Source of the DNA: Candidatus Saccharimonadales bacterium
Lineage (GTDB): Bacteria; Patescibacteriota; Saccharimonadia; Saccharimonadales; JAYRRP01
Reading direction: 5' to 3'
Length of the DNA stretch: 64,000 bases
Assembly (NCBI GenBank): GCA_041910055.1
Contig: JAYRRP010000003.1
Coordinates: 45,973-109,972, forward strand
The notes beneath the pieces were generated by a model. That model was not told the DNA's origin. It ran no database searches and worked only from the letters and a program-made list of their open reading frames with translations. Positions 8,969 to 46,195 of this stretch are shown one piece after another. Position numbers and translations under genes: made by a program. How positions within the stretch are numbered: the stretch's first letter is position 1; each line of letters starts with the position of its first letter.

Positions 8969-9343
8969 ATGCTTACTGCCATTTCGCTATTCCGCTGGTG
9001 GTATGGTTCTGGTTGGCTTTGGTGTATCAATCAAGGCAAAAACCAGATCAGCGGATTGGTAGATCAATTCTCAGTATTCACCTTATTGAGAACCTTAGGC
9101 GCGCCCTGGAAACAAATTATCAGCCGCCCAACCCAACAAACTGGATTGGACACAAAGTTCCGGGCTGTTATTGACAACATGGTGTCACGCATCGTTGGCT
9201 TTGGAGTGCGCAGTATTGTGCTCATCGCTGCTGGCCTGCTTATTTTATTTTGGACAATTGTGAGTGGGGTGACAATCCTGGCATGGCCATTCATACCGCT
9301 ATCTCCATTGGCTTTACTCCTCGCATCGGTGGGAGTGTTATAG
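8969..9343 (+). CDS. Small membrane protein, stop overlaps the start of the Clp-like gene
   Basis: 124-aa ORF with a C-terminal pair of hydrophobic helices. The TAG stop (9341-9343) shares its G with the downstream GTG. Confidence 0.55.
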   Translation: MLTAISLFRWWYGSGWLWCINQGKNQISGLVDQFSVFTLLRTLGAPWKQIISRPTQQTGLDTKFRAVIDNMVSRIVGFGVRSIVLIAAGLLILFWTIVSGVTILAWPFIPLSPLALLLASVGVL

Positions 9344-11864: not shown

Positions 11865-12464
11865 ATGAAAGACCTTTTACTGCTTCTATCAGCGCTTATT
11901 ACAATTGGCGGTGTAGTACCTTATATTCTTGACATTCTTAAGGGCAAAACCAAGCCTAATATTGTCTCTTGGATTACCTGGACGCTTCTTACAGGATTGG
12001 CAACCGCCGCATTGATAGCAGCACATGAATACCGAGCAGCTTTCTTCACGGGAGCTGCAGTGATTGAGACGGCATCGGTTGTAATACTTGGGCTAAGACA
12101 TGGGTACGTTAAGTACACTCAATTTGATGTAATATGCCAAATTGCAGCAGTCGTTGGACTAATCCTGTGGCAGATATTTAACACACCATTCATAGCAGTC
12201 TTCGCTGCCGTAACAATAGATCTCATAGGCGCATTACCTACCTTCAGACACTCCTGGCAAAAACCATTTGAAGAAACTTGGACTACCTATGCTTTATCGG
12301 GTATTGGAGCGTTGGTAGCATTGTTCGCCCTTGTGTCTTACAACTGGACAAGTCTTTCATACCCCGTGTATATAGTTCTTGTAAACATACTTATTACTAC
12401 TACTATCCTCATTGCGAGAAAAGTTAGCTTACAGAAAAACAGTACCCATTCTCGTACAAAATGA
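11865..12464 (+). CDS. Polytopic membrane protein (about 6-7 TM), unknown function
   Basis: 199-aa hydrophobic ORF placed between two terminators. Confidence 0.65.
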   Translation: MKDLLLLLSALITIGGVVPYILDILKGKTKPNIVSWITWTLLTGLATAALIAAHEYRAAFFTGAAVIETASVVILGLRHGYVKYTQFDVICQIAAVVGLILWQIFNTPFIAVFAAVTIDLIGALPTFRHSWQKPFEETWTTYALSGIGALVALFALVSYNWTSLSYPVYIVLVNILITTTILIARKVSLQKNSTHSRTK

Positions 12465-12496: not shown

Positions 12497-12514
12497 TGGT
12501 CGGGGTGAGAGGAC
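12497..12514. repeat. att direct repeat, distal copy (TGGTCGGGGTGAGAGGAC)
   Basis: Perfect 18/18 match to 19901-19918, which is the 3' end of tRNA-Pro. Confidence 0.8.
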
Positions 12515-12576
12515 AGCGCTCGGGCTCACGCGCCGTGCTAACCTCCGATGTCGTCGGTTCAATTCTGGTACCATCA

Positions 12577-12612
12577 TGCAAAAAGCTCAGGCTTTGGTCT
12601 GAGCTTTTTGCA
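12577..12612. terminator. 14-bp-stem bidirectional hairpin at the left edge of the element
   Basis: TGCAAAAAGCTCAG-GCTTTGGT-CTGAGCTTTTTGCA. The core is GCTCAG/CTGAGC, flanked by an A-run and a T-run. Confidence 0.55.
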
Positions 12613-12754
12613 TGGTCGGGGGTAACAGATTTTTCTCAAACTTTAGATTTGATAATCCGCCAACGCCAAAACCTTAACATTATGGTAGAACGTCTGACTG
12701 CTGTTAGCAAATATGACGATAAGAAATTATCACTAATAAGTCTATAATGGTGGT

Positions 12755-14240: not shown

Positions 14241-14489
14241 CTAAATGTCTTGCTTTCTTTCCTTGTACATATCGTAGATTAACTTTGCTAGAGCTTCCGC
14301 ATCTTCTTTTCGTTTATCCCTGATCACAAGGTCGTCTAATTGTTTCTTGGTTATTGGCTGGTAGACAGTTTTTACCTGCAATAACAGCATCGTAAGTTTT
14401 TTACGTGCAATCTGATAGTCCAGCTCTTTCCCAAACTTAGATTTGTATAAGTCTTGAAACTTTTTTACGTCTTTTTCGGTTATCTCCAT
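14241..14489 (-). CDS. Hypothetical small helical protein (82 aa), Lys/Glu-rich
   Basis: Its stop lies 1 nt from the repressor stop (convergent). It is divergent from dcm. No family recognised. Confidence 0.5.
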   Translation of the reverse strand: MEITEKDVKKFQDLYKSKFGKELDYQIARKKLTMLLLQVKTVYQPITKKQLDDLVIRDKRKEDAEALAKLIYDMYKERKQDI

Positions 14490-16212: not shown

Positions 16213-16333
16213 TAGTAAAAAGTATACTTCAACACCTTATATATAAAAATCATCTTGTCAAAAACCGTTAAGAAAATGCAGATTGACACAGGTTTACTAT
16301 TATGGAAATATAATTGAATTAACAGAGGTCATT

Positions 16334-16342
16334 TGCTATAAT
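16334..16342 (+). promoter_or_regulatory. Extended -10 (TGCTATAAT) upstream of the MgsA_C-like gene
   Basis: TGnTATAAT lies about 37 nt upstream of ATG 16379, which has a GGGGG SD. Confidence 0.4.
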
Positions 16343-16378: not shown

Positions 16379-17008
16379 ATGACAAATAATGACACCAAAA
16401 GCACAGCCAAAAAGTCATCATATCGTGGTGGCTATGAGCTAAAAGTAATCGGCGACTATGAGTTTGACGAAGTCAGTTCTGCAATGCAGAAGATGATTCG
16501 CCGAAATCAGGAGTATGAAGCCTGCTGGTGGGCGTACGTGCTACACGATAGCGGTTACTACAAATACGTCTGGCGTAGGTTGATGATAATAGCCTCGGAA
16601 GATATTGGTAACGCTAACCCGATGGCAGCCATAATGGTAAATACCCTCAGACAGAACTATGAAGCCACTATGGACAGTAAGACCAGGTTCGGTGGCAATG
16701 GTGCATTATTCTTGTTTCAAGCCATTATGTACCTCTGTTCCTCCGAAAAGGTACGAGAAGCCGATACCCTAGCTAACTTGGTTATCAAGGAGTTCAAGGA
16801 CGGCAAACGCCTAGAAATACCCGAGGTCGCCGTAGACGTACACACTGCTAGAGGCAAGACTATACACGGTAAGTGGGAACAAGGCACTGACGAGGAAAAG
16901 AAAGAGCGGGCGAAGAAATGGTATGAGATTTGGTCAGCCGTAACCCCAGCTTCAAAAATGCCTGATAAGTATCTTGATAAGTGGAAGAAATTGGAGGGTC
17001 ATCTATGA
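16379..17008 (+). CDS. Stand-alone RarA/MgsA C-terminal-domain (MgsA_C-like) protein, no AAA+ module
   Basis: FDEVSSAMQKMIRR, RRLMIIASEDIGNANP, AIMYLCSSEK and VDVHTARGK align by eye with E. coli RarA YDLISALHKSVRGS, ARRCLAIASEDVGNADP, AIVYLACAPKSN and VPVHLRNAPTK. Start set at the ATG after the SD; the TTG 16283 extension was rejected. Confidence 0.72.
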   Translation: MTNNDTKSTAKKSSYRGGYELKVIGDYEFDEVSSAMQKMIRRNQEYEACWWAYVLHDSGYYKYVWRRLMIIASEDIGNANPMAAIMVNTLRQNYEATMDSKTRFGGNGALFLFQAIMYLCSSEKVREADTLANLVIKEFKDGKRLEIPEVAVDVHTARGKTIHGKWEQGTDEEKKERAKKWYEIWSAVTPASKMPDKYLDKWKKLEGHL

Positions 17009-17898
17009 ACACTCTAGTTAAAGCGACAATTCCTAAAGATTACACGGCCCTCTTTGATAACTTGGACGTAGCCGAAAGTACCAGAGCAGATTATTGTTAC
17101 CGTTTGCCATTATTCGTGTCCTACGTGAACCTGTATGGCTTTGATACAAACACCTATTTACACTATAAGAGGTATCTACGAGCGACTAAATGGTCGGTAT
17201 CAACCAAGAACAAGCATCTAATAGTGGCGAGGGTTTTCCTAAAGGAGATGCACCGCCAGGGCTTACTGCCAACCGACATTACACATAACGTAAAGGCTTT
17301 TAAGCAAAGTAAGAAGCACAAGAAACGTGGCTTGAATGATATTGAGGTCAAGAGACTTACTACTTGGCTTGCCGATCTGCCAGAAACGCCAGAAAGCGAT
17401 AGGCTCAAAGCAATTTTTAGCCTGCTGTTGTTACAGGGTTTACGTCTTATAGAAATATGCAGGCTAGACTTTGAGGACTTAGACTTTGAAAACGATAGAC
17501 TGTTTGTATGGGGTAAAGGCAGAGACGATAAAGAACCAGTCCTGTTAATTCCCCAGACTGTTACGTACCTGCGAGAGTATTTAAGAAGTAATGAAGTAAG
17601 AGACGGTGCGTTATTTAGGAGTAATAGCCATAGCCAAATGGGCAGCAGATTATCTACTCGTGGACTTCGTGAGATTATCTCGGTCATATTCAAGATGTTA
17701 CATATAAACAAGACCGCTCACGGGACACGCCATTATTACACCAGCAAGCTATTAAAACATATGCCTGGGGAGTTACTTGATGTGGCTCAATTCACACGAC
17801 ACCGAAGCATTGAGATGTTGCGTGAATACGATAATCGCAATAAACAGGACTTTGCCCTAGACAAAGTGGTTGCGGCATTTGCAGGTGTCAATTTTTAA
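17005..17898 (+). CDS. Tyrosine recombinase (XerC/D / phage integrase family)
   Basis: Catalytic signature: GLRLIEICRL (Arg), HGTRHYY (HxxR) and RHRSIEMLREY (His...Tyr). ATG 17005 forms an ATGA overlap with the upstream stop. Confidence 0.88.
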   Translation: MNTLVKATIPKDYTALFDNLDVAESTRADYCYRLPLFVSYVNLYGFDTNTYLHYKRYLRATKWSVSTKNKHLIVARVFLKEMHRQGLLPTDITHNVKAFKQSKKHKKRGLNDIEVKRLTTWLADLPETPESDRLKAIFSLLLLQGLRLIEICRLDFEDLDFENDRLFVWGKGRDDKEPVLLIPQTVTYLREYLRSNEVRDGALFRSNSHSQMGSRLSTRGLREIISVIFKMLHINKTAHGTRHYYTSKLLKHMPGELLDVAQFTRHRSIEMLREYDNRNKQDFALDKVVAAFAGVNF

Positions 17899-17915
17899 GC
17901 TAAATGCCCAAACAA

Positions 17916-18099
17916 TTCCCTGCAATTTCCCTAAACAAGTCCTATAAAGGTGCTGTTTTCATACCAGATTGCCCTAATGTTGTCGGATTTACACGCGATA
18001 AAGTTAGGGAAATGATAGGGAGAATATAGGGAACGTCCTAACATAGACCCCCTAACCTAAAAACCAAATAGTCTAGGAAATTGGTAGGCGATTGGTAGG
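17916..18099. repeat. Array of 11-bp-phased short repeats (TAGGGA family and ATTGGTAGG)
   Basis: TTCCCT at 17916 and 17927; CCCTAA at 17972 and 18050; TAGGGA at 18005, 18016 and 18027; ATTGGTAGG at 18080 and 18091. There is a perfect 10-bp inverted pair, ATTTCCCTAA (17925-17934) and TTAGGGAAAT (18004-18013). Confidence 0.65.
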
Positions 18100-18223
18100 A
18101 AATGAGCTAAATTAAACACCCATTTACTGCCAATAACACTAATTACAAGCACTAACATTACACCTTAAATTATTTGAGCCTTTGAACTCTAGCAAACTAT
18201 AATAAACGTAGGAGAACTACAGT

Positions 18224-19912
18224 TTGAGCGATAACAATATAGACCTATTCAAAATTATCCAAAGTCAGGTAGCACCAACTGCACCTAAGGAGATTGACCC
18301 TACGCAGCTTCGTTATGCTATATATGTCCGCAAGTCTACCGAAAGTGAAGAAAGACAAATCCGCTCTATACCAGACCAGATTAGTGATTGTATGGAGCTA
18401 GTAGTTGAGCCAAACGGTATTGTAATCAACCAAAAGACTGACATCTTCAAGGAGGAAAAGTCTGCAAAGGAAGCGGGTACAAGACCTGTATTCCGAGAAC
18501 TAATGAACAAAATTGCTGATGGCAAATACGATGCCCTGATATCGTGGCACTACGATCGCATCGCCAGAAATATGAAAGAAGCGGGTGAGATAATTGACCT
18601 AATAGACCGAGGGCAAATCAAAGACCTTAAACTTGCAAAAGCTACATTTGAAAACACTCCAAATGGCAAGATGATACTCGGTATAAGCTTTGTGCTGTCA
18701 AAGCACTATTCAGACCACCTAAGCGAATCGGTATTGCGAGGTAATAAAAGTAGTACCGAAAAAGGCAGGATACTCGCACACCAAGTACACGGCTACCGTA
18801 TCAGTGAGGATAGAAAGCTAATTGCCGACGACAGCAATTACTTAATTATTGAACACGCTTTTAGAATGAGACTTGAAAATAAGTCATTGAAAGACATAGC
18901 AAAGTACATTAACGATAACGGCTACAGGGTACATAGACCAAGCATAGGACACAGAATTAGTATTTTTGACGAGGATAAAGTCTCTAAACTGCTAAGAAAT
19001 CCAGTTTATGCAGGTGTTAATGTCTATGGTAAGACAGTAGTACGTATGGCAGATATTGACCCAGACTTTACGCCAATGGTTAGTGAAGAAGATTTCGTTG
19101 CCCTTAATGGTAAGGGTAGCTTTTTACCTTACACAATGACAGGTTCAAAGCGAATCGCACCTAACGATGTGTCTGACTTTTTACGACAGTTTATAATATG
19201 CGGACACTGTGGTCGTAAACTGGGTACGAGCGTAACTTCAAAGTATACGACAAATAACGGCGTTAAGAGTAAACAGCCAGTCCACTTCTATTTCCGCTTC
19301 AAGTGCAATAACAAGGTCTGCGAAGCATTTGGCAGTGGTCCGAAAGGCTCACTAATAAAAGATTATGTAGCAGATTTTCTACAATCTCACCTATTTACTA
19401 CCAAAAGCAACTATAAACGATACCTAGAAGATGCTCAGACGTTTCTAGCGACACGAAAGGCAGAACTTACGTCTGCCAATAAAAGTCTAACCATACTACT
19501 AAGCAAGAAACGCCGAGAGTACGATGATGCTAAAACTATTGCTGCCGATAACAATAACCCCCTATCCGTACACTACACGCCAAAGCACCTAGATAAGCTA
19601 AAAAACGAAGTGGACGATTACGACAAGCAGGTGCTGGAGATTCGGAAGGAACTTGAGGACCAAAATACTGCTTTGGTGTCTTATGACGAGTTTCTCAAAC
19701 TTTACGAAAATGCGGCTGAATTACTTCGTACAACCTATGGTATGACGATGGCTGACGAACTTATACGGATTTTCTTCTCAAACTTGACTGTAATAAGCAA
19801 ACCATACGGCAAAAAATTGAAACAAAAACAGTGGTCGGTAACTGACCACTGCCTTAACGAACCGTTTGACGATTTCGTCAAAAACGGTGATTTTCTTGTA
19901 TGGTCGGGGTGA
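18224..19912 (+). CDS. Large serine recombinase
   Basis: Resolvase catalytic segment YVRKSTESE...R, a recombinase domain, the zinc-ribbon CGHCGRKL...C..C, and a C-terminal coiled coil. TTG start with AGGAG SD. The last 4 codons and the stop lie inside the att repeat and tRNA-Pro. Confidence 0.9.
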   Translation: MSDNNIDLFKIIQSQVAPTAPKEIDPTQLRYAIYVRKSTESEERQIRSIPDQISDCMELVVEPNGIVINQKTDIFKEEKSAKEAGTRPVFRELMNKIADGKYDALISWHYDRIARNMKEAGEIIDLIDRGQIKDLKLAKATFENTPNGKMILGISFVLSKHYSDHLSESVLRGNKSSTEKGRILAHQVHGYRISEDRKLIADDSNYLIIEHAFRMRLENKSLKDIAKYINDNGYRVHRPSIGHRISIFDEDKVSKLLRNPVYAGVNVYGKTVVRMADIDPDFTPMVSEEDFVALNGKGSFLPYTMTGSKRIAPNDVSDFLRQFIICGHCGRKLGTSVTSKYTTNNGVKSKQPVHFYFRFKCNNKVCEAFGSGPKGSLIKDYVADFLQSHLFTTKSNYKRYLEDAQTFLATRKAELTSANKSLTILLSKKRREYDDAKTIAADNNNPLSVHYTPKHLDKLKNEVDDYDKQVLEIRKELEDQNTALVSYDEFLKLYENAAELLRTTYGMTMADELIRIFFSNLTVISKPYGKKLKQKQWSVTDHCLNEPFDDFVKNGDFLVWSG

Positions 19913-19918
19913 GAGGAC
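19901..19918. repeat. att direct repeat, tRNA-proximal copy (TGGTCGGGGTGAGAGGAC)
   Basis: Identical to 12497-12514. It corresponds to the tRNA-Pro T-arm 3' strand, acceptor 3' strand, discriminator and CCA. Confidence 0.8.
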
Positions 19919-19977
19919 TTGAACCTCCGACCTCCTGGTCCCAAACCAGGCGCGCTAGCCAACTGCGCCACACCCCG
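19901..19977 (-). tRNA. tRNA-Pro (anticodon UGG)
   Basis: Acceptor CGGGGTG/CACCCCG, D arm GCGC-AGTTGGCTA-GCGC, anticodon stem CCTGG/CCAGG with loop TTTGGGA, T arm GGAGG-TTCAAGT-CCTCT, encoded CCA. Confidence 0.93.
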
Positions 19978-45823: not shown

Positions 45824-46195
45824 TTAACCCTTTAGCATATCAATTAGAAGTATCAAGAGACCGATTAACAGAATAGAACCAAACACTCTAAACGTATATT
45901 TAGTAAATTTCTCGGGGAAAAGTGTGTCACCTACATAACCTTTTGGATCGCCATAATGCTTGGCTAAAGCGGTTAAGGGGCACTTCATGCCGCTGCCAAA
46001 GAAAACTATACCTTCGACCGTTAGCAATCCTAATGACACATAAAGCAGACAGTTATAATTCTTTGCAATTGCAGCGTACACAATATAAAAAATCGCCGCA
46101 ACCATAACTAGATAGATAAAAGTATGAACGGTTTTAACAAGCATCAGCTTCTTATGATTAGGCGCAACGTTGTCCATAGTTTTACTATACGCCAC
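45824..46195 (-). CDS. Small membrane protein (about 4 TM), unknown function
   Basis: 123-aa hydrophobic ORF. Confidence 0.6.
   Translation of the reverse strand: MAYSKTMDNVAPNHKKLMLVKTVHTFIYLVMVAAIFYIVYAAIAKNYNCLLYVSLGLLTVEGIVFFGSGMKCPLTALAKHYGDPKGYVGDTLFPEKFTKYTFRVFGSILLIGLLILLIDMLKG

Follow-up and report, generated by a model that had tools for sequence, protein, structure and literature searches.

The 64,000-nucleotide stretch analyzed here (positions 45,973 to 109,972 of contig JAYRRP010000003.1, assembly GCA_041910055.1, from a Candidatus Saccharimonadales bacterium; the window in what follows) carries, in a small genomic island at a tRNA-Pro gene, a 325-bp non-coding gap (17899-18223) between a tyrosine recombinase gene and a serine recombinase gene, both on the plus strand. 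The gap contains arrays of short repeats with 11-bp spacing and, next to them, a 28-bp dif-like core. [quoted passage not shown] In this explanation, about 250 bp (17906-18169) would constitute one site-specific recombination locus of the upstream tyrosine recombinase, with strand exchange occurring inside the core (18126-18153), as in Xer sites, and with the phased repeats serving as an architectural arm on the gene side of the core at a fixed helical phase. Protein would line up along the repeat units on one face of the DNA, either as additional protomers of the recombinase or as a small factor resembling Xis/Cox/Apl or a response regulator, and the loaded arm would bend or wrap and so decide which cores synapse and in which direction they recombine.

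The 11-bp phasing of the repeats lies far above chance. An earlier, sequence-only reading of this DNA had reported TAGGGA at 18005, 18016, and 18027, TTCCCT at 17916 and 17927, CCCTAA at 17972 and 18050, a tandem ATTGGTAGG at 18080 and 18091, and a 10-bp inverted pair (17925-17934 and 18004-18013), and re-reading of the sequence bears out all of these positions, as well as the 325-bp length of the gap. The hexamer TAGGGA as such is not enriched over the whole window (21 copies vs. 23 expected), and four of the 21 copies lie within 105 bp in the gap. The phased multi-copy pattern, on which the earlier argument had rested, is real: six same-strand AGG/CCT pairs occur at a distance of exactly 11 bp, compared with 0.16 expected, and six or more were obtained in none of 2000 dinucleotide shuffles. 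A scan of the full 64 kb with a matrix of the repeat unit places six of seven phased pairs at 17915-18093, leaving one lone pair in the rest of the window (related loci have one or two such pairs elsewhere, none of them forming an array), and Tandem Repeats Finder returns a period of 11 at 18005-18033.

The arrays comprise two forward modules and one inverted four-unit array, spanning 17906-18109, a pattern richer than had been noted before. The inverted array (17906-17949, minus strand) consists of three exact 11-bp units (CCT at 17919, 17930, and 17941) and one variant (CCA at 17908); it is also present in three related loci (L002, L003, and L035), and weakly in a fourth (L004). A lone CCCTAA copy (17972-17977, minus strand) occupies the spacer between the arrays, and similar lone copies are found in L002, L003, and L035. 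The distal forward module (18003-18070, plus strand) has three 11-bp units at 18003-18035 and ends in the palindrome TAGG-GAACGT-CCTA (18027-18040), after which a tail with CCCTAAC decays to a core-like remnant. In the proximal forward module (18071-18125, plus strand), a third TAGG at 18074, absent from the earlier reading, completes a triplet of units (18074, 18085, and 18096); its palindrome is TAGG-AAATGA-GCTA (18096-18109), and its tail, ending in AAACACCCATTT, abuts the core. An 18-bp inverted repeat in the gap has arms that are 83% complementary and separated by 69 bp.

Related loci were collected from genomes, from metagenomes, and by exact-protein look-up, and 13 distinct intergenic variants were compared, the histogram of pair distances being pooled from 11 sequences (10 distinct). 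Motif enrichment across related elements had been proposed as a check on the repeats, and the phased pattern indeed recurs in 13 distinct related loci. In the pooled histogram, 44 pairs fall at a distance of 11 bp and 22 at 22 bp, and no other distance exceeds seven; phasing is strongly non-random in the window and in eight of the ten other sequences tested, and is visible in three further loci. In the 13 variants, the arrays fill the space from the stop codon of the recombinase gene to the core, on one side of the core only, and their sequences have diverged almost wholly while the core has remained invariant.

What is retained in the arrays is a common grammar. A forward module is composed of three 11-bp units, with the consensus (A/T)(A/T)T(G/T)N-TAGG(G/A/C)AAA, and a tail of the form ..CTAA..AACACCC, the last of which abuts the core. 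The third unit of a module forms a palindrome, (T/C)AGG-N6-(C/G)CTA, in 17 cases, and AGG is followed by CCT at a distance of 9 eight times, compared with 0.25 expected. The last AGG lies at -29/-30 relative to the core in six variants (at 29 bp in the proximal module of the window and likewise in L004, L019, L031, and L034) and at -19 in five, so that the helical phase to the core is kept even though the intervening sequence differs. The number of modules ranges from one to four, with four forward modules in L023, and there are 6-13 units in about 250 bp; one variant (L001) keeps TGG versions of the motif at the same 11-bp spacing. Internal modules are followed by decayed core-like sequence, such as ATGACCAATAAC in L022, and these remnants suggest that the arrays grew by duplication of array plus core. 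As a separate observation, L029 alone among the loci has unit-like repeats beyond the core, on its right side: two short phased unit pairs (2014-2080), at a distance of about 80-140 bp and upstream of a type III methylase gene.

The core itself begins just past 18099, where the repeat region had been taken to end, and it was missed by the sequence-only reading. Predicted by sequence comparison, it is an imperfect palindrome of 11+6+11 bp on the plus strand, ACTGCCAATAA-CACTAA-TTACAAGCACT (18126-18153), which is unique within the window and is followed by a conserved right flank, AACATTACACCTTAAA (18154-18169, plus strand), beyond which the sequence diverges. Its imperfect inverted arms of about 11 bp around a 6-bp center correspond to the layout of Xer sites, and its left arm is close to that of the Bacillus subtilis dif site, ACTTCCTAGAA (the dif sequences of Escherichia coli and B. 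subtilis being those published; PMC3025954). Among 12 distinct close relatives (78-96% recombinase identity), 26 of the 28 positions are invariant, with flanking DNA about 60-80% identical, and the only parts that these relatives share with the window are the gene for a RarA_C-like protein, the recombinase gene, and a short box at 18120-18187.

Linkage of the core to the recombinase gene extends much further. Every homologous locus with readable downstream sequence, covering 43-96% identity and several phyla of the Candidate Phyla Radiation (CPR), has one copy of the core on the strand of the gene, either downstream of the gene or overlapping its 3' end. One related box is also found with each of the distant homologues (43-53% identity), which come from Parcubacteria, Berkelbacteria, Woesebacteria, and other Saccharibacteria; it is located anywhere from an overlap with the 3' end of the gene to 3.2 kb downstream, and the family consensus is ACTTCCNATAA-CTATAA-TTACAGGAAAT. 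Matches to the core at 20 or more of 27 positions number 39 in all fetched DNA, compared with 0-1 in shuffled sequences. No match was found in the viral contigs scanned, and an alignment of related loci gave no second core at the promoter upstream of the RarA_C-like gene. A scan of the window for a second core bounding the element or its cargo returned chance-level matches only, about ten of them at 17 or more of 26 positions; the best, AGTAGTAATAAGTATGTTTACAAGAACT (18 of 26; 12374-12401, minus strand), is likewise at chance level and is inverted, some 100 bp beyond the island's left end.

The gene to which the core is linked (17005-17898, plus strand) encodes a 297-residue tyrosine recombinase (Pfam Phage_integrase). 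The protein consists of a core-binding and a catalytic domain only, without an arm-binding N-domain: the SAM-like core-binding domain starts at about residue 20 (residue 27 of the 305-residue open reading frame, ORF), and the catalytic domain covers ORF residues 123-289. Its best NCBIfam model is XerA_Arch (2e-25; 89.9 bits vs. a cut-off of 220), with lower scores for XerC (71 vs. 335), XerD (59 vs. 330), XerS (48 vs. 267), and the integron integrase model integrase_gron (24 vs. 265), and its best match in the Protein Data Bank (PDB) is XerA (5hxy). Because all of these profile scores are far below the family cut-offs, the recombinase falls outside the curated Xer families and can be called Xer-like only. 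It has at least 669 homologues, mostly in the CPR, and its close relatives are sporadic, being present in 5 of 185,579 species genomes.

Immediately upstream, a 209-residue protein (16379-17008, plus strand; Pfam MgsA_C, 3.9e-14; PDB 3bge and 3pvs) corresponds to a stand-alone C-terminal domain of RarA/MgsA without the AAA+ module. Its stop codon overlaps the start codon of the recombinase gene (ATGA, 17005-17008), and the two genes stand in this order in L010, in L011, and in the close relatives whose recombinases are 61-96% identical to that of the window. The RarA_C-like protein may be a partner or activation factor of the recombinase, and it accompanies the recombinase also where arrays are absent. 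A conserved promoter-like TTGAAT-17-TATAAT (16314-16342, plus strand) precedes this operon in an alignment of nine loci, from which its function is inferred; some 40 bp before it, at a conserved TTGACA-like box (about 16280), homology among the related islands sets in. Two side observations concern this protein: its pairing with the recombinase is kept into Berkelbacteria (L010, 5414-5833; L011, 5338-5892), and it matches two phage families, phrog_33349 and phrog_16866.

Comparison of related islands places breakpoints at the core. From at least 700 bp upstream up to and including the core, L020 shares 99-100% identity with L019 and L022, and from about 5 bp past the core it is unrelated to them; on that side it is similar to L001 and L002 instead (91% at +28 to +60 and about 70% beyond). 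The same pattern, with the same left side and a different right side, is observed for L021 and L005. The left halves of the window and L022 are 82-90% identical and include the same methylase and HNH genes as cargo, but the right halves are unrelated and sit at different tRNAs. Conversely, the window has its right half in common with L004 and L023, the recombinases of which show only 79-86% identity to that of the window. The joining of near-identical left halves to unrelated right halves exactly at the core indicates that the core acts as a recombination hot spot, and small defense islands of Saccharibacteria thus appear, from these alignments, to swap halves there. When the right half is exchanged, the arrays stay with the tyrosine recombinase, so that the serine recombinase is not tied to the repeats.

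Within a composite locus, the serine recombinase would place the island in tRNA-Pro, with the tyrosine recombinase site remaining internal and intact, and the tyrosine recombinase would be likely to act on circular or tandem copies of the element, resolving or fusing them. Such resolution or fusion would reassort the left half (defense cargo, RarA_C-like protein, and recombinase) with the right half (cargo and the serine-recombinase integration module).

As to which protein would bind the units, several candidates can be considered. The units resemble half-sites of the recombinase: the family right arm, TTACAGGAAAT, ranks in the top 0.03% of 11-mers scored with the unit matrix, and ATTGGTAGGAAATGAG agrees by eye with ATTGGCAGTAAATGGG, the reverse complement of the left arm and its flank, at 13 of 16 positions. 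The recombinase itself would be our tentative first choice as binder, while a small factor encoded by the island is possible, a host factor appears rather unlikely, and it is quite improbable that nothing binds the units. One small island protein, orf82 (82 residues, 14241-14489, minus strand), has 29 homologues restricted to this group, and is modeled as three helices (predicted local distance difference test score, pLDDT, of 72); it gave no fold match and no match in Pfam, NCBIfam, or PHROG. No gene similar to Xis, Cox, or Apl was recognized in the island, and no PepA- or ArgR-type sites were recognized in the accessory DNA. The S24 repressor of the island, which had earlier been listed among the proteins to be tested for binding, was rejected as a binder, since the related loci with arrays all lack a homologue of it.

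Several points weigh against a composite recombination locus of this kind, or against parts of it. There is one core per element, and the partner site of any reaction was not seen; the element has no visible replication gene, which leaves a role in multimer resolution without an obvious substrate. Distant relatives with a core show no arrays, and relatives at 61-64% identity (L012 and L014) carry weak ones, so that the arrays would be a lineage-specific addition that is not essential to catalysis. The arms of the core in the window match the unit matrix modestly (top 0.9% for the left arm, read as reverse complement, and top 3.8% for the right), a spacing of 11 bp is tight for full-size tyrosine recombinase protomers on adjoining units, and the terminal palindrome suggests a dimeric factor instead. 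Moreover, homologous recombination inside the invariant core could be the source of the breakpoints.

Among other explanations for the repeats, it has to be considered that they are evolutionary debris, left by duplication and decay of half-sites and cores at a hot spot and having no present function. The varying number of modules (one to four), their fast turnover even at 96% recombinase identity (the window vs. L022), the core-like remnants behind internal modules, and the lack of arrays in distant relatives would all fit; however, neutral scars would be expected to lose their exact 11-bp spacing, whereas 13 diverged variants have kept the AGG, the triplet-plus-palindrome grammar, and the phase to the core, and we regard debris as unlikely. 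An operator array is distinctly unlikely as well. Bound by the S24 repressor, by a response regulator, or by some small protein of the island, it would control the downstream serine recombinase gene or cargo genes, or would terminate or insulate the upstream operon; direct repeats of 11 bp combined with 14-bp palindromes are typical operator grammar, and a promoter-like site of the serine recombinase gene lies 70 bp downstream of the last unit. This explanation fails because the arrays follow the recombinase, remaining with its gene and the core when the downstream genes are replaced, because no comparable array exists elsewhere in the window or in the relatives, and because S24 is not conserved in the related loci; in addition, the arrays lie on the upstream side of the core and no closer than 70 bp to the promoter-like site. 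The occurrence of multi-copy repeats with helical phasing in the longest non-coding gap also brings to mind the iterons of a replication origin, or a parC-like centromere, of an excised circular island, and parC of plasmid R1 does consist of 11-bp repeats. The suggestion of an iteron or ParB array in the sequence-only reading is nevertheless very unlikely to be correct, in that Pfam searches found no gene for Rep, ParA/ParM, or ParB/ParR in the island of the window or in any related island, and in that such a function leaves unexplained why the arrays travel with the recombinase gene and the core in every relative, at a fixed position and phase beside the core.

That the module is the chromosome's own single-recombinase Xer/dif system, comparable to XerS/difSL, with the repeats as accessory sequences of the terminus, is highly improbable. 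The dif-like core with its left arm close to ACTTCCTAGAA of B. subtilis and the gene adjoining its site are as expected for such a system, and the window has its maximum of cumulative GC skew at about 19.3 kb (19269), with gene orientation changing from mostly plus to mostly minus at about 20 kb; indeed, the tRNA-Pro island may lie near the replication terminus of this genome. Yet the module resides in a tRNA-flanked island, the islands of its relatives lie at four different tRNAs, and only 5 of 185,579 species genomes contain a close relative. Furthermore, a homologue is located at 11% and at 93% of two 1.3-Mb records, surrounded by mobile-element genes including resolvases, and no skew switch is observed at the site in other loci. 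Finally, the inverted arrays could bound an invertible segment (17950-18002, between the inverted and forward arrays and marked by GCTGTTTT) that one of the two recombinases would flip, invertible-segment boundaries having been among the earlier suggestions. The 18-bp inverted repeat mentioned above and a weak promoter-like match within the segment are compatible with such a switch, but the segment has the same orientation in all five variants that carry it (the window, L002, L003, L019, and L035), eight of 13 variants are without a clear inverted array, and the arms are arrays of units and not a pair of cores, which makes an inverton extremely improbable. The region 17899-18160 was also considered as an RNA structure (folding z = -2.8), a candidate that was rejected because the z-score is driven by the inverted arrays that most relatives lack.

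A composite recombination locus has several known counterparts, and a core with one-sided accessory repeats is a well-known principle. Accessory DNA of about 160-180 bp is characteristic of cer and psi, the latter using ArcA/PepA, and both have, as here, a dif-like core with accessory DNA on one side only. In the window, the one-sided layout (a core plus 100-200 bp) of resolution sites such as cer/psi, the IRS, and Tn3 res is apparent from the arrays at 17906-18109 and from the right flank, which diverges after about 16 bp. The wrapping of cer accessory DNA by ArgR/PepA confers selectivity for resolution (PMC5357621). In contrast to cer and psi, the present locus has a single, element-encoded recombinase, and its accessory DNA consists of explicit short phased repeats. 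The TnpI/IRS system of Tn4430, in which accessory recombinase motifs on one side of the core impose the synapse's architecture and its directionality (PMC2847244), is similar in combining a tyrosine recombinase, a core of two inverted motifs, and one-sided tandem accessory motifs (DR1-DR2) related to the core motif. However, the IRS has two accessory motifs in 116 bp, whereas here there are 6-13 units in about 250 bp, arranged in triplet modules with terminal palindromes; the units are spaced by 11 bp, their binding by the recombinase is putative, and the host element is an island integrated by a serine recombinase rather than a replicative transposon.

Similarities to the RDF-bound arrays are also considerable. 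The RDFs Apl, Xis, and Cox bind to direct repeats with a spacing of one helical turn beside att cores, and the arm is bent by a filament of the small protein (PMC7498355). The lambda Xis sites (X1-X1.5-X2) and those of 186 Apl and P2 Cox share with the present arrays at least three direct repeats with one-turn spacing beside a tyrosine recombinase core, but here several modules are found instead of one, and the ends of the island are made by a serine recombinase. Single Xer recombinases such as XerS and XerH are encoded beside their site (PMC5357621), and XerS/difSL, XerH/difH, and archaeal XerA/dif resemble the present module in that one recombinase adjoins a near-palindromic dif-like site, the best profile and structure matches being to XerA. 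Unlike these chromosomal housekeeping systems, the module is located in mobile islands, away from the expected terminus, includes a translationally coupled RarA_C-like partner and accessory arrays, and has scores far under the family cut-offs.

Of the four earlier suggestions, that of arm-type integrase sites comes closest, in that the repeats would belong to the site of the tyrosine recombinase. In the strict lambda sense it does not apply: the arms of lambda attP flank the core on both sides and the site is split on integration, whereas here the arrays are one-sided, the recombinase has no arm-binding N-domain, and the site is intact and internal. Integrons provide a further comparison, attI1 having extra direct repeats that bind IntI1. 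Reports on integrons and on the pdif modules of Acinetobacter describe variable cargo beside a tyrosine recombinase site and reassortment at dif-like sites (PMC12907356, PMC11705084). The present islands are similar in that cargo starts directly beside the site and modules reassort at dif-like sites, and they differ in having one core per element: no second core-like (attC- or pdif-like) site was found in the cargo regions, structured attC-like sites not having been searched for.

The island in which the locus lies is 7.4 kb long, of lower G+C content, and situated within tRNA-Pro(tgg) (19901-19977, minus strand). The 3' 18 bp of the tRNA gene (19901-19918) are repeated at 12497-12514, these repeats marking both island ends, and a further partial copy lies at 12612. 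The gene order is S24 LexA-like protein, orf82, C5 methylase, HNH nuclease, RarA_C-like protein, tyrosine recombinase, and large serine recombinase (18224-19912, plus strand; Pfam Resolvase and Recombinase), the last of which extends 12 bp into the tRNA gene. From this arrangement, the serine recombinase is the probable integrase of the island, and it, not the tyrosine recombinase, appears to have integrated it; the site of the tyrosine recombinase remains intact 1.75 kb inside the island. A promoter-like TTGAGC-18-TATAAT (18174-18203, plus strand) and a ribosome-binding site, AGGAG, at 18210 precede the serine recombinase gene, on the basis of consensus matches only. The tRNA genes occupied by related islands are tRNA-Arg(gcg), tRNA-Arg(tcg), tRNA-Glu, and tRNA-Pro, and every one of these islands has a separate serine recombinase that extends into the tRNA. 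The serine recombinase ORFs enter or cross the tRNA gene on the opposite strand at 19901-19912 in the window, 10290-10507 in L001, 11121-11233 in L022, and 9630-9805 in L029, which places the attachment site within the 3' end of the integrase gene, so that integration alters the C-terminus of the protein.

Further features of the island and its relatives can be noted. An att-like ...T(G/T)GTCGGGG occurs in three copies (12484, 12600, and 19888), and between the first two lie a perfect 16-bp hairpin (12575-12590 and 12599-12614) and a stretch resembling a tRNA T-arm (GGTTCAATTCTGGTACCA); the segment 12484-12621 may be the leftover of an earlier tandem element at tRNA-Pro. Searches of the island DNA against plasmids and phages, and of the island against Rfam, gave a match to the tRNA only. 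An empty tRNA-Pro site was sought in a sister strain, where one flank protein had no record and the contig of the other stops at the island border. This metagenomic contig (L015) carries the right-flank genes of the window, including an identical 151-residue protein, and its end at 9123, just before the tRNA-Pro border, is consistent with strain variation or a repeat at that position.

Cargo occupies two slots, one upstream of the RarA_C-like gene and one between the core and the serine recombinase gene, both of which carry defense genes. Among them are a cyclic oligonucleotide-based antiphage signaling system (CBASS; SMODS with Cap15), restriction-modification systems of types II and III, and genes for Vsr, a HEPN protein, and an OLD-like ATPase; they are found in L012 (1182-5293), L022 (2044-6411), L028 (7267-9036), L029 (2137-6949), L031 (293-1162), and L035 (1085-1951). 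Downstream of the core, the relatives at 61-64% identity have a conserved stretch of about 230 nt (L012, 7030-7290; L014, 3160-3400) with a TATAAT box and several GC-rich hairpins, which precedes a DUF5659 gene and an orf82-like gene and may be a structured leader or a small RNA.

Full-text searches of the literature on islands of Saccharibacteria or the CPR with these recombinases yielded nothing relevant, and neither the recombinase family and its dif-like core nor the RarA_C-like partner, the modular arrays, or the two-recombinase design of the island appear to have been described. It is a speculative possibility that these islands represent an undescribed class of two-recombinase defense islands in the CPR, in which a serine recombinase anchors the island at a tRNA and an Xer-like/RarA_C module forms a cargo-exchange platform at a dif-like core with phased arrays. 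Equally tentative is the idea that such a platform would swap cargo, and even the integration module, between islands, in a manner similar to integrons or cassette exchange although built from Xer parts.

If the explanation favored here is correct, a recombination site would be defined for a large uncharacterized family of CPR tyrosine recombinases, and the accessory arrays would predict a built-in control of directionality. At about 1.9 kb, the recombinase and its site would also constitute a compact, self-contained module, and one that comes from organisms with few genetic tools. For the islands themselves, it would provide a concrete route by which restriction-modification, CBASS, and other cargo could be reshuffled and the tRNA target changed.

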